Positions 49,981-53,132 of a stretch of DNA of 64,000 bases are shown piece after piece. A program made the position numbers and the translations under genes. The DNA lies in NCBI GenBank assembly GCA_963751215.1, contig CAVVTV010000004.1, forward strand, positions 329,226-393,225. Direction: 5' to 3'. The notes beneath the pieces were generated by a model. The model worked only from the letters and a program-made list of their open reading frames with translations, made no database searches and was not told the origin of the DNA. Position 1 is the first letter of the stretch. The number at the start of each line of letters is the position of its first letter. Origin of the DNA: an uncultured Thermoleophilia bacterium. Its GTDB lineage: Bacteria; Actinomycetota; Thermoleophilia; UBA2241.

Positions 49981-51423
49981 CTAGCCCGCCGCCGGATCCT
50001 CGTGCGCGCTGGAGAGCCCGCTCACATCGGCCAGGGCCTGGCCGCGCAGACGCAGGTTGATGCGTCCGCGCTCGTACTCTTCCATGAAGTCCGTTGAGCT
50101 CCCGTCCCGGTAGGCCAGATCCTTATCGCGCAGCACGCGAGCGAGCACCTCGATGTAGCGGCCTTCCAGGGTGCGATCCGCCACGAGGCGCAGTTCCTTG
50201 AGGGCCTCAAATGAGCTGCGCGCCGCGTGGTAGGGCCGGTCGGAGGTCATGGCGTGGTACGAGTCGGCCACAGCCAGGATCTTGCTGGCCTCGGGAATCT
50301 GATCGCCGCGCACGCCGCTCGGGTAGCCGCTGCCGTCCAGCCGCTCGTGGTGGTAACGCACGATGTCGGCCACGTCCTGGTAGTTGGCCAGGTGGCTGAG
50401 CACTTCGGCGCCCTTCTCGGGATGCTCGTGGATGCAGGCCCAGTCGGCCTCGTTCAGTATCGTGGTCTTGCGCAACACGGCATCGGGCACGCCTACCTTG
50501 CCTAGGTCGTGCAGCAGGCCCGCCACATGCAGGGCGTCACTCTCCTCCTCGGGCAGGTTGAGCGCCACGGCCATGTCGCGACAGTACATGGCCACGGCCG
50601 CCGAGTGCTGGGCCGTGTACTCGTCCTTGCTGTCGAGCAGCACCACCATGGCCGCCGCCAAGCCGATGTTCATCTCCAGGTATTGGTCGCTGAGTTCTTT
50701 TTGCTTCGCCAGATGGGCCTTCTCGCGCACCAGCAGCCTGAACATGTACTGGCTCGCCAGCAACGGGATGAACAGCAGGGCCACGGCCACGATGCCCGAC
50801 TTGGCGTAGAGCGCCGCCACAGCCAAGCCGAGCAGCGCCAGAATCGCCAGCGATCTCAGGAAGGGCGGCATCTCCTCGCGCCAGAACGCCCCTATATCCT
50901 TGCCGTACCTGGTGTGCATGCCGATGCTCACGGCGACCAGGTTGGTGACCTCATAGACGGCGGCGGCGGCGGCGCCCGCCACGAGCAGCTGCACAGAGAC
51001 ACTCGTGAGTGAGACGCCAAGCACGACCACGAGCCTGTCGAACACCAGCGAGGCGAGGAAGGCGGATACCGCGAAGTTGGCGGCGTTATAGACGACCACC
51101 GCCCAGCTGTTCTCACGCCACGCCCCCCATAGACCTACGATCAGGGCGACGAGAACGGCGGGCAGACGGCCCGTGTACATGACGGCGAGGAGGATTGGCA
51201 GGTTGCCGGCCGCCAGAGTGACCCGATCGGCGACCTCCACGGCCATCTCCTCGGCCACGATCGCGAGCACGCAGAAGATGGCGGCATCGCGCAACACGAC
51301 CGCGACGAGAGCTACCGGCCCCGCGTATAGAAACGCGAACCCGATGGCACACGCCGCAATCACGGCGAAGACTACGGTCAGAGTTTGGTAGTTGCGCTCA
51401 GAAGACAGCAAGGCACCCCACAA
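49981..51423 (-). CDS. HD-GYP phosphodiesterase with an N-terminal multi-TM sensor domain
   Basis: About 240 aa hydrophobic N-terminus; TAQHS, LHDLGK, HHERLDGSGYP, VADSYHAMTSDRPY. Confidence 0.92.
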   Translation of the reverse strand: MWGALLSSERNYQTLTVVFAVIAACAIGFAFLYAGPVALVAVVLRDAAIFCVLAIVAEEMAVEVADRVTLAAGNLPILLAVMYTGRLPAVLVALIVGLWGAWRENSWAVVVYNAANFAVSAFLASLVFDRLVVVLGVSLTSVSVQLLVAGAAAAAVYEVTNLVAVSIGMHTRYGKDIGAFWREEMPPFLRSLAILALLGLAVAALYAKSGIVAVALLFIPLLASQYMFRLLVREKAHLAKQKELSDQYLEMNIGLAAAMVVLLDSKDEYTAQHSAAVAMYCRDMAVALNLPEEESDALHVAGLLHDLGKVGVPDAVLRKTTILNEADWACIHEHPEKGAEVLSHLANYQDVADIVRYHHERLDGSGYPSGVRGDQIPEASKILAVADSYHAMTSDRPYHAARSSFEALKELRLVADRTLEGRYIEVLARVLRDKDLAYRDGSSTDFMEEYERGRINLRLRGQALADVSGLSSAHEDPAAG

Positions 51424-51486
51424 CTGTGAGCAGTGCCTATTCTATCGGCACGCCAAAGTCGGACCTTGAAAAGCCGGTATCGCGCG

Positions 51487-51564
51487 CTAGTGCATCTTGC
51501 TGCCGCCGCTGGTGACGATCGCGAACAGCAGGGAAGCCAACGTCTTCTCGATCTTCTTACTCAT
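51487..51564 (-). CDS. 25-aa peptide MSKKIEKTLASLLFAIVTSGGSKMH, candidate signalling-peptide precursor
   Basis: GAGGA RBS just upstream of ATG; GC3-rich codons; co-oriented 63 nt upstream of the HD-GYP ORF. Confidence 0.7.
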   Translation of the reverse strand: MSKKIEKTLASLLFAIVTSGGSKMH

Positions 51565-51947
51565 TGTGAATCCTCACTGAGTTGATACCCTACGGTTCAG
51601 TGCATGCGGACGCTGGTACGCATCGTCCCTCCTCAAGTTTTCGCCACCATCTGCCGATACATAATGGTTGACGTTCGTTCTGACCGCACTCTACGTGAGG
51701 CGGGACGCGGCGTGCACGTTGTATCTATTTGGCCGTTGTGTCTATATTGACAACACTTTTTGGCCGACGTGTACTCCGCTGCCGGGAGGACATCGTCAAC
51801 CCATTGACCGGGGCTCCGCCGTAGGGTGTAGTAAGGCGCGCGGGTCGCCGGAGGACGCGCCGGCGGCAGGGGCCTACCACCGAGGGGACCGACACCATAG
51901 ACGCGCAAGCGGCCGGCACAACGGAATCGACGCAATCGTCAACCCCA

Positions 51948-53132
51948 TTGGCCCGCAACCGTGCCTTCATCCTGCTCTGGTCGGGCCAGTTCGTCTCGCA
52001 GATGGGCGACCGGCTGGCCATGGTCGCCTTTCCCGTGCTCGTCTACCACCGCACCGGCTCCGCCCTGAGCACAGGTCTTATCTTCGCCCTCTACACCCTG
52101 CCCTACGTGCTGTTCGGCACCTTCGCGGGCGCTGTGATCGACCGGTTCAACAAGCGCACCATCATGATCATCGCCGACCTGTTACGCGTGGGCCTCGTAG
52201 TACTCGTTCCGCTGTTCGCCACCCGTTCTCTTCCGGCCGTCTTCGTGCTCAGCTTCGCCATCTCGAGCGCGGCCGTGTTCTTCGATCCCGGCAAGATCGC
52301 CATCGTGCCCGACATCGTGGGTCCCGGCATGCTCCTGCGCGCCAACTCGCTGCTCGCCAGCGGCGAGAACCTCACTGAGATCCTGGGCTTCAGCCTGGCG
52401 GGCTTCACGCTCGCCTATGTGTCCACCGCCACCGCCTTCCGTGTTGACGCCGTCACATTCGCGGCGTCGGCCGCGGCCCTGGCGCTCATGCGCTACCGGG
52501 CTCCGCTACGCGTGGCGGCCGCGCAGCAGGCGGAGTCGCTGGGGCGACAGGTGCGCGAGGGCCTGAGCTTCCTTCGCCACCATCGCGGCCTGCTGGTGAA
52601 CACGGCCATGGTGGTAGCTTCAGTGGCCGGTCTGGGAGCCTCCTACCCGCTCACGTTCTTCCTCGCCGTTCGCGTGTTGCATGGCGGGCCACAGGCGTTT
52701 GGCCTGTTCGAGGCGGCCGTCGGCTTGGGGTATCTGGTCGGCTCGCTGATTCTGGCGGCGCTGGCGACGCGCGTGCGACTGGGCTATGCCATCACGCTCG
52801 GCCTCATGGTGATGGGCCTCGGCCTCGTGATCGTGGCGGTGACCGGGGCGGTGTGGCAGGCCTGCATGCCGTTTGCCCTGGTCGGCCTGGCCAACGCTGC
52901 GGCGCTCATATCCGTTGACACGTATCTGCAGAAAGTGGTTCCCGAACCGCTGCGCGGCCGCGTGCTGGGCGCCCGCTTCACCCTCACCCAGGGCACGTAT
53001 GCGCTTTCGGTGCTGATCGGCGGTGCGCTGGCCGGCGTGTTCGACGTGCGCGCCCTCTTTCTCGTGGCCGGCGCCTTGGTGGGCGTGCCCGCGCTGGTGG
53101 GGCTGTGTGTGAAGGAGATCCGCGAGGTCTGA
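51948..53132 (+). CDS. MFS transporter (DHA3/macrolide efflux-like)
   Basis: FILLWSGQFVSQMGD, GAVIDRFNKR, LQKVVPEPLRGRV. Confidence 0.9.
   Translation: MARNRAFILLWSGQFVSQMGDRLAMVAFPVLVYHRTGSALSTGLIFALYTLPYVLFGTFAGAVIDRFNKRTIMIIADLLRVGLVVLVPLFATRSLPAVFVLSFAISSAAVFFDPGKIAIVPDIVGPGMLLRANSLLASGENLTEILGFSLAGFTLAYVSTATAFRVDAVTFAASAAALALMRYRAPLRVAAAQQAESLGRQVREGLSFLRHHRGLLVNTAMVVASVAGLGASYPLTFFLAVRVLHGGPQAFGLFEAAVGLGYLVGSLILAALATRVRLGYAITLGLMVMGLGLVIVAVTGAVWQACMPFALVGLANAAALISVDTYLQKVVPEPLRGRVLGARFTLTQGTYALSVLIGGALAGVFDVRALFLVAGALVGVPALVGLCVKEIREV

Follow-up and report, generated by a model that had tools for sequence, protein, structure and literature searches.

We found that a 25-codon open reading frame on the minus strand of the DNA analyzed here is a genuine gene, and that it belongs to an undescribed family of tiny, signal-peptide-like, putative membrane peptides encoded just upstream of one class of membrane-bound c-di-GMP-degrading sensor enzymes in the Actinomycetota, which makes it a candidate for the unknown input of that sensor. 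The window is a 64,000-nucleotide stretch from an uncultured Thermoleophilia bacterium (GenBank assembly GCA_963751215.1, contig CAVVTV010000004.1, positions 329,226 to 393,225 of the forward strand), and all coordinates refer to it. The features of the locus are as follows.

51948-53132, plus strand: divergent MFS_1/MFS_3 transporter gene.
51735-51756: imperfect palindrome upstream of the −10-like site, in a block conserved in relatives; a candidate operator shared with the divergent gene, for which no binding protein was identified.
51688-51693, minus strand: −10-like hexamer (TAGAGT), conserved in position in alignments of relatives; inferred from conservation only, as a sigma-70 consensus scan found no promoter.
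51643-51672, minus strand: 5′ leader hairpin presenting the near-invariant motif TATCGGCA (51652-51659) in its loop.
51597-51623, minus strand: mini-ORF (uORF1) of 8 codons plus TGA, ending Arg-Met-His, with a strong Shine-Dalgarno (SD) sequence at 51627-51634.
51571-51575, minus strand: SD sequence (GAGGA) of ORF2, 6 nt before its ATG; the equivalent purine-rich site is aligned in relatives.
51487-51564, minus strand: micro-ORF (ORF2), ATG, 25 codons plus TAG, with a basic N terminus, a hydrophobic core, Gly-Gly, and the tail Ser-Lys-Met-His.
51442-51450, minus strand: near-invariant TGCCGATAG between ORF2 and the HD-GYP start, the reverse complement of the 5′ loop motif.
49981-51423, minus strand: MASE9-HD-GYP phosphodiesterase gene, with MASE9 at about 50746-51267 and HD-GYP at about 50176-50649.

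The first-pass annotation, made from the sequence alone, had described the 25-residue peptide gene with its own ribosome-binding site, the co-oriented HD-GYP sensor gene 63 nt downstream, the comparatively AT-rich region and divergent MFS gene upstream, and the absence of AgrB or a C39 peptidase from the window, and every element of that description was confirmed. The 63-nt gap is measured to the listed TTG start (51423) of the 480-residue downstream ORF; alignment with orthologues suggests that the real start is the in-frame TTG at 51411, which makes the gap 75 nt. A Pfam search identified MASE9 at residues 53 to 226 of this ORF (26.5 bits, cut-off 24.3) and a complete HD_5/HD-GYP domain at residues 259 to 416 (E = 4e-39, profile positions 3 to 163 of 170), with the HD and GYP motifs visible in the translation. 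The GC content is 0.54 to 0.55 over positions 51400 to 51799, compared with 0.62 to 0.70 in the flanking coding DNA. Searches with the AgrB (PF04647) and C39 peptidase (PF03412) models returned no match anywhere in the 96%-complete genome, while the control for the C39 model was detected in 7 of 14 known genomes. The first-pass annotation missed uORF1, which ends in the same Lys/Arg-hydrophobic-His-stop as ORF2, and also the conserved leader hairpin; both leave a cis-regulatory reading open.

We next asked whether ORF2 is conserved as a coding sequence. The same ORF lies upstream of the orthologous gene in 63 of 66 Thermoleophilia loci of the family with at least 200 nt of upstream sequence, and in 28 of 30 further loci. 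Among 47 distinct nucleotide versions, column entropy at codon positions 1, 2, and 3 was 0.65, 0.39, and 1.11, respectively, and pooled pN/pS was 0.37. These substitutions are of the coding type, and the ORF is far beyond chance. Matches were obtained in 46 of 55 genomes of the family, with only noise-level hits (E = 0.002 to 0.008) elsewhere in the class, and the gene is single-copy in the genome studied here (E = 4.1e-13; next hit, E = 0.95). However, one complete genome of the genus keeps the sensor orthologue (60% identity) but has two 8-codon ORFs ending Lys-Leu-Arg and no ORF2 anywhere, so the peptide is dispensable there. No terminator-like site was found on the minus strand between ORF2 and the sensor gene.

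A search for similar short ORFs upstream of other sensors of this class, which had been proposed beforehand as a test, showed that the pairing is much wider than this family. An ORF of 19 to 32 codons with a basic start, a hydrophobic core, a small-residue pair, and a 4- to 6-residue basic/aromatic tail precedes MASE9-HD-GYP genes in 12 of 15 loci of a second family, each with a strong SD sequence, and 20 of 21 Pfam-confirmed MASE9-HD-GYP genes in a phylum-wide sample, but only 1 of 6 MASE9-histidine kinases, so it is not a general requirement of MASE9. With the same strict criteria, no such ORF lay upstream of about 477 other ORFs. Four loci carry two or three tandem identical copies. Only two variants were found as called "hypothetical" genes; a 514-residue member of one peptide cluster showed no likeness to the 26-residue peptide, and we treat it as clustering noise. 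The MFS transporter is a conserved neighbor in this family only (hits in 92 of 103 family loci, 0 of 27 second-family loci, and 0 of 30 phylum loci) and was therefore rejected as a part of the module.

The peptides share a physicochemical pattern although their sequences have diverged. Length is 25 to 26 residues in both families and 19 to 29 in the phylum sample, net charge at the start is positive, and the median longest uncharged stretch is 16.5 to 19 residues (15 to 19 residues in this family and 17 to 22 in the second family). A small-residue pair is present in 61 of 61 peptides and a basic residue in the tail in 59 of 61. Seven of 43 peptides weakly matched the signal-peptide part of the Phr precursor model TIGR04429 (best E = 8.8e-4), although the peptide from the window had no hit. 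A Cys before the tail occurs only in some lineages with no consistent lipobox, and a lipoprotein reading was rejected on this basis. Conservation along the putative helix showed no helical periodicity (permutation P = 0.37). A complex prediction of the MASE9 domain (alignment of 53 rows) with the peptide alignment scored 0.17 and 0.19 against a mark of 0.32, but because the peptide is shorter than anything in the calibration of the method, these scores are not evidence either way.

We further examined the leader. In relatives, uORF1 comprises 1 to 4 in-frame units, each ending Lys/Arg-hydrophobic-His and repeated with different periods in different lineages. All 46 distinct leaders carry such a frame ending 70 nt or less before ORF2, 38 of them with an SD sequence plus ATG or GTG, and the gap from uORF1 to ORF2 is only 5 to 60 nt. 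In ORF2, the His before the stop is invariant in 32 of 32 distinct versions, and Lys/Arg at −3 is at least 90% conserved. By a hand count among roughly 21 non-Met lineages, the hydrophobic tail residue matched between uORF1 and ORF2 in about 9 against about 6 expected, which is not convincing, and the lineages are related. A stem of at least 5 bp flanks the 5′ loop motif in 32 of 41 distinct leaders, against 14.6% of shuffled flanks, with 25 distinct 3′ arms, although the minimum free energy fold of the window's own leader did not contain it and was no better than shuffles (z = −0.58). RNAalifold on 41 leaders returned as its only consensus helix the ATCGGC:GCCGAT pair between the loop motif and its downstream complement, but this pair never varies, and there is thus no covariation support. 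A possible pairing between CTTTAG/CTTGAG and CTCAAG/CTAAAG was dropped because the changes, judged by eye on the alignments, were not consistently compensatory. In 19 phylum loci, duplexes between the regions upstream and downstream of the micro-ORF had z-scores of −3.3 to +1.4, with only one locus below −2, and in other families a downstream complement of the loop motif was found at a single locus. No Rfam family matched positions 51300 to 52100 at E values up to 1.

Taken together, these data show that ORF2 is under peptide-level selection and single-copy, that it is always co-oriented with and 15 to 140 nt upstream of the sensor gene, and that the same architecture (a basic start, 15 to 22 uncharged residues, a small-residue pair, and a 4- to 6-residue tail with a basic plus an aromatic or hydrophobic residue) recurs in distant families. 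The remainder is inferred from sequence alone, including translation, membrane location, and binding. Our preferred, though tentative, reading is that ORF2 is co-transcribed with the sensor, that the peptide inserts into the membrane after release from the ribosome with its N terminus inside and its tail at the outer face, and that it stays there as a bound partner or modulator of the MASE9 domain, setting how actively the cytoplasmic HD-GYP domain hydrolyzes c-di-GMP. In this view, uORF1 and the 5′ hairpin would form an extra layer in this family that probably tunes translation of the module. A basic-then-hydrophobic pattern kept while the sequence diverges is what membrane targeting demands and not what the ribosomal tunnel demands, and MASE9 has been argued to bind its ligand within the membrane (Galperin and Chou, bioRxiv 10.1101/2021.11.05.467447). 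Several points weigh against this reading: uORF1 shares the tail but has no hydrophobic part, which a membrane-partner model does not explain; the peptide is absent from the one complete genome described above and from five of six MASE9-histidine kinase loci; the uncharged stretch in this family is short for a membrane span and fits a cleavable signal peptide as well; helical periodicity is lacking; and tandem identical copies suit a high-dose signal better than a 1:1 subunit.

A less likely alternative is that uORF1 and ORF2 are purely cis-acting leader peptides with no function after release, such that ribosomes terminating or stalling at the shared tail and stop, together with the 5′ hairpin and the downstream complementary element, would decide whether the HD-GYP start site is open. 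This is favored by two adjacent ORFs of otherwise unrelated sequence ending in the same Lys/Arg-hydrophobic-His plus stop, by the in-frame repetition of the unit in uORF1, by the short gap between the ORFs, by the supported hairpin and the near-invariant complement of its loop just before the sensor's start, and by the genome that keeps two mini-ORFs but no ORF2. On the other hand, a basic-plus-hydrophobic, signal-peptide-like pattern kept across a phylum while the sequence diverges has no role inside the exit tunnel, and a 25-residue chain cannot reach the membrane machinery while still on the ribosome. In addition, uORF1 and the shared tail are confined to this one family whereas the micro-ORF is phylum-wide, the long-range pair never varies, the window's leader folds no better than shuffles, duplexes were unremarkable in 18 of 19 phylum loci, the loop complement is lacking outside this family at all but one locus, and no Rfam family matched.

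The first-pass annotation had proposed that the peptide, either whole in the membrane or cleaved after Gly-Gly to release the tail, is the ligand or regulatory subunit of the receptor in a quorum-like system of Agr/ComC layout. This interpretation was partly supported: the peptide gene and the polytopic HD-GYP sensor do form a conserved pair, but the Agr/ComC analogy fails on its defining parts, and cleavage, export, and quorum-like accumulation remain inference only. In an amended version, which we consider unlikely, ORF2 would be a minimal precursor consisting of a Sec-type signal peptide followed by only 4 to 6 residues; signal peptidase I would cut after the small-residue pair, and the C-terminal peptide would accumulate outside the cell and be sensed by the MASE9-HD-GYP protein, giving density-dependent control of c-di-GMP. 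The n-, h-, and c-region layout with small residues before the tail in all 61 peptides, an uncharged stretch nearer in this family to signal-peptide than to membrane-span length, tails that differ between lineages but are stable within them, as pheromone specificities are, tandem copies, which are common for secreted-peptide precursors, and the weak Phr matches fit this version, and because no dedicated exporter would be needed, the absence of AgrB and C39 does not count against it. Against it, the outer loops of MASE9 are described as short and poorly conserved, with ligand binding expected inside the membrane (Galperin and Chou, bioRxiv 10.1101/2021.11.05.467447), a Glu, a Ser, and an Ala inside the supposed signal peptide are at least 90% conserved in this family, which is unusual for a disposable signal peptide, and uORF1 carries the same tail without any export signal. 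Small hydrophobic peptides of this size include toxins of type I systems, but an unrelated toxin-like or housekeeping membrane peptide merely sharing the promoter region is very unlikely, as the linkage to one sensor subfamily holds across at least three separately sampled groups, none was found upstream of about 477 other ORFs, the gene is single-copy, and no antisense RNA family was found in the Rfam search.

We compared the module with known systems. Small membrane-protein modulators of sensors and pumps (MgrB-PhoQ, SafA-PhoQ, KdpF, AcrZ, and CydX) are likewise peptides of fewer than 50 residues with one hydrophobic segment, and the proposed action by contact within the membrane with a polytopic partner is similar; however, none is known to be homologous, none is known to regulate a c-di-GMP enzyme, MgrB and SafA are not known to be encoded in the sensor's own leader, and the peptide studied here is shorter, with binding only inferred. 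In Phr-Rap and other RRNPP pairs of Firmicutes, the precursor gene lies next to the receptor gene and encodes a Sec-type signal peptide, with the active part in roughly the C-terminal 5 residues, often including a basic residue, as would be the case here. Phr precursors are 38 to 57 residues long and need further processing, and their receptors are cytoplasmic TPR proteins reached through Opp import, whereas here the partner is a membrane HD-GYP enzyme and the neighbors (the sensor, an MFS transporter, a PRC-barrel protein, a hydrolase, and a peroxiredoxin) include no such TPR receptor. AgrD/AgrB/AgrC and ComC/ComAB/ComD share the layout of a short peptide gene beside a polytopic receptor gene, but the genome has no AgrB and no C39 peptidase, the peptide has no Cys for a thiolactone ring, and the partner has HD-GYP and no kinase domains. 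Double-glycine leaders are hydrophilic and are followed by a mature peptide of about 17 or more residues, whereas here the Gly-Gly follows the hydrophobic core and only 4 residues remain. Termination-stage arrest and leader peptides such as TnaC and SpeFL are likewise uORFs of about 24 codons in the leader of the regulated gene, with strictly conserved last residues and stop position, a feature that ORF2 shares. Those peptides have not been described as signal-peptide-like, and their effector and arrest are known; here the tail motif is family-specific while the hydrophobic architecture is what is conserved phylum-wide. The downstream gene itself belongs to the known MASE9-HD-GYP phosphodiesterases, which include T. 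maritima TM1467 and S. venezuelae HdgA (Galperin and Chou, bioRxiv 10.1101/2021.11.05.467447); the passages of that study consulted here describe no associated small gene, and literature searches on MASE9 and on HD-GYP proteins with small membrane proteins, signal peptides, or small ORFs, judged largely from listings, found no paper describing such a peptide.

MASE9 is one of many membrane sensor domains of c-di-GMP enzymes for which no ligand is known, and only one member is reported to have been touched experimentally (Galperin and Chou, bioRxiv 10.1101/2021.11.05.467447). A conserved micropeptide gene in front of nearly every MASE9-HD-GYP gene sampled offers a concrete hypothesis that is inexpensive to test. 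It is possible, although we hold this only tentatively, that the micropeptide is the missing input of the sensor and that MASE9-HD-GYP phosphodiesterases across the Actinomycetota are two-part machines whose activity is set by a self-encoded peptide of 20 to 30 residues acting inside or at the face of the membrane; in this Thermoleophilia family, the tail-only mini-ORF with 1 to 4 copies of the same C-terminal epitope would then serve as a cytoplasmic decoy or a translational timer for the peptide. If the hypothesis holds, it would add a peptide-to-second-messenger route that uses no kinase and no dedicated exporter, and it would show that standard annotation misses half of a widespread signaling module, because these ORFs lie below gene-calling cut-offs.

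We first examined the small open reading frame and its neighborhood. A 25-codon ORF with an ATG preceded by GAGGA at a 6-nt spacing and a TAG stop lies on the minus strand, 63 nt before the listed TTG start of a co-oriented 480-codon ORF, and the observation of the first-pass annotation is confirmed as it was described. Alignment with orthologues, however, placed the likely start of the larger ORF at a second in-frame TTG. The features considered here are as follows.

51487-51564, minus strand: the 25-codon micro-ORF (ORF2)
51597-51623, minus strand: an 8-codon mini-ORF, 32 nt upstream of ORF2
51423: listed TTG start of the sensor gene, co-oriented with ORF2
51411: in-frame TTG, the likely start of the sensor gene
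51735-51756: imperfect palindrome, a candidate operator
51948-53132: divergent MFS_1/MFS_3 transporter gene

Pfam assigned MASE9 (residues 53-226, 26.5 bits, cut-off 24.3) and a full HD_5/HD-GYP domain (E 4e-39) to the product of the larger ORF. The intergenic region is lower in GC, at 0.54-0.55 against 0.62-0.70. A search of Rfam returned no family matching this region, and no terminator-like site was found on the minus strand between the small ORF and the sensor gene.

We next asked whether ORF2 is a gene. Of 73 orthologous loci retrieved by two routes, 66 had at least 200 nt of upstream sequence, and 63 of those carry the ORF. Two more loci (L046 and L056) carry it with a disturbed N-terminal frame, and one (L015, from the complete genome G007) lacks it. 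The 64 copies gave 47 distinct nucleotide sequences, with column entropies of 0.65/0.39/1.11 by codon position and a pooled pN/pS of 0.37, and the length is fixed at 25-26 codons. In L046, L056, and a further locus, L079, the ORF2 copies have an internal out-of-frame stretch or a disturbed N terminus while the tail stays in frame, which could represent compensated frameshifts or long-read indel errors. A profile of the peptide found one copy in the genome under study, at E 4.1e-13 with the next hit at E 0.95. The same profile matched 46 of 55 genomes of the family, whereas in 246 other genomes of the class it gave only hits of E 0.002-0.008 inside long ORFs, in 8 genomes. In 28 of 30 further loci, the order is mini-ORF, ORF2, and sensor gene on one strand, with 48-107 nt between ORF2 and the sensor; the other two loci are cut by contig ends. 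Two variants are already called as genes in metagenome annotations, on 65 and 51 contigs, one of them named "hypothetical protein," but the exact peptide of the window was not on record. Taken together, these data show that ORF2 is a gene.

The first-pass annotation missed a second ORF, the mini-ORF upstream of ORF2, which has a strong SD and ends Arg-Met-His-TGA. All 46 distinct leaders of the family have a frame ending Lys/Arg-hydrophobic-His-stop within 70 nt of ORF2, and 38 of these have SD plus ATG/GTG in frame. Those peptides hold 1 unit (15 leaders), 2 units (7), 3 units (14), or 4 units (2) of the tripeptide. Different lineages have different repeat periods of 5-9 codons, and changes within the unit are synonymous or conservative (Met/Ile/Leu/Val, Lys/Arg, and both His codons), so the unit is selected as peptide and not as DNA. 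In a few long-read MAGs, an internal unit is out of frame, which could reflect either sequencing error or biology.

The leader also contains a positionally conserved -10-like hexamer and a 5′ hairpin whose loop shows a near-invariant 8-mer. A stem of at least 5 bp was present in 32 of 41 distinct leaders, against 14.6% of shuffled flanks, with 25 distinct 3′ arms. The exact complement of this 8-mer lies just before the start of the sensor gene; RNAalifold pairs the two motifs, but because they never vary, nothing supports the pairing. The leader of the window as a whole folded no better than shuffles. Duplex and hairpin tests supported a hairpin but not an enclosing helix in the loci analyzed here. 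In a phylum-wide sample of loci (described below), a hairpin with the loop motif TAGCGG, one base different from the TATCGG of this family, lies upstream of the micro-ORF in 7 of 28 loci (L137, L138, L148, L154, L157, L163, and L166) with 7 different stems; this includes L163, where no micro-ORF was found. In locus L143, the same two 8-mers that lie about 200 nt apart in the leader of this family form a local hairpin between the micro-ORF and the sensor gene. Upstream of the -10-like hexamer, the imperfect palindrome and a second related half-site are conserved across the family in the aligned blocks of loci L002-L024. This is a candidate operator between the divergent MFS gene and the leader, although no regulator was identified. 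The divergent MFS_3-type transporter is itself a conserved neighbor in this family (92 of 103 loci) and appears in 3 of 6 loci of other families of the class, but in none of the second-family or phylum loci.

We then investigated how far the micro-ORF extends beyond this family. In a second family of the class, whose sensor is about 41% identical to that of the window, 12 of 15 orthologous loci have a 25-26 codon ORF with a strong SD, 96-137 nt upstream of the sensor gene. The encoded peptide has a basic start, a hydrophobic core, a small-residue pair, and a tail rich in Arg and Trp. In other families of the class, the more distant sensor homologues (33-44% identity; loci L025, L026, and L028) have only very short SD-led ORFs of 6-7 codons in their leaders and no hydrophobic micro-ORF. 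The genome under study also holds about 20 regions matching the HD-GYP query, many in open frames of 750-850 codons, which is a large HD-GYP complement for a 4-Mb genome.

To sample the phylum, we searched for MASE9, which matched in 161 of 401 genomes at E 0.001 or better (this tally includes 8 genomes flagged as unpublished, none of which supplied a locus), and examined the 30 best loci. Of 21 loci assigned by Pfam as MASE9-HD-GYP, 20 have an upstream small ORF, compared to 1 of 6 Pfam-assigned MASE9-histidine kinases, in which the ORF is atypical, and 0 of 2 loci assigned by Pfam as MASE9 only or cut. The remaining locus, L161, which was cut at 233 residues by a contig end and carries no Pfam assignment, also has the ORF. 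Among the 20 HD-GYP loci with the ORF, 16 met strict criteria and 4 more were found once the SD requirement was dropped; L163 has none. The ORFs are 19-32 codons long and co-oriented with the sensor gene. Four loci from low-GC lineages (L147, L150, L158, and L160) hold two or three tandem identical copies, each with its own SD, and in L150 the copies lie about 113 nt apart. As a control, the strict criteria flagged 9 of 486 "other" ORFs of at least 150 codons, but all nine were frames at the MASE9 genes themselves, so that none of about 477 remained. We note that the strict criteria are too harsh for the less hydrophobic peptide of the family studied here (17 of 80), and its presence in this family rests on homology and not on those criteria.

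Across the three groups, the peptides share a net positive charge in the first six residues, a median longest uncharged stretch of 16.5-19 residues, a small-residue pair near the end (61 of 61 peptides), and a basic residue in the last five (59 of 61 peptides). An aromatic residue was found in the last four positions in 29 of 29 peptides outside this family and in 0 of 32 inside it, where Met/Ile/Val/Leu-His takes its place. No curated family covers these peptides, although 7 of 43 weakly matched the signal-peptide part of Phr precursors.

What is conserved phylum-wide is the pattern that membrane targeting needs, a basic stretch followed by a hydrophobic one, while the sequence itself drifts and linkage to one sensor subfamily is nearly complete. 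This points to a peptide that acts as a product in or at the membrane, on the MASE9-HD-GYP protein. The authors who defined MASE9 expect its ligand to bind within the membrane and report no ligand. We therefore tentatively favor a membrane-inserted partner or modulator; the gene, its conserved architecture, and its linkage to the sensor are shown by our analysis, but translation, membrane insertion, and any binding to or effect on the sensor are inferred from sequence.

A purely cis-acting leader is less likely but is kept alive by the family-specific mini-ORF with the same ending, by the hairpin, and by G007, a complete genome of the genus. At L015, G007 keeps the sensor but has no ORF2, carrying instead, about 150-330 nt upstream of the sensor orthologue, two SD-led 8-codon ORFs with nearly identical peptides ending Trp-Lys-Leu-Arg. 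The cis reading does not explain the signal-peptide-like architecture. A released signal of 4-6 residues cut by signal peptidase is a close second within the trans readings, yet also doubtful: the short hydrophobic stretch, the small residues before the tail, the lineage-specific tails, and the tandem copies favor it, but conserved residues within the supposed signal peptide and the poorly conserved outer loops of MASE9 count against it. A layered system is likely, with cis control of a trans-acting peptide, although the mini-ORF does not yet have an explained role in it.

With respect to known systems, the sensor is a member of the MASE9-HD-GYP family, whereas the peptide is not a member of the Agr or ComC families and does not appear to belong to the Phr family: searches of the genome found no AgrB and no C39 peptidase, the peptide has no Cys, and there is no kinase and no TPR receptor. 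For the proposed membrane-partner version, the closest functional analogues are small membrane modulators such as MgrB on PhoQ and, for the released-signal version, Phr-type C-terminal pentapeptides. A literature search, confined to listings and selected passages, found no paper describing a micropeptide coupled to an HD-GYP or MASE9 protein. The interpretation offered in the first-pass annotation, that the peptide is the ligand or regulatory subunit of this receptor and gives quorum-like control of second-messenger levels, is supported only in part. While its mechanism is open but directly testable, the finding is a real, unannotated, and widespread micropeptide-sensor module.
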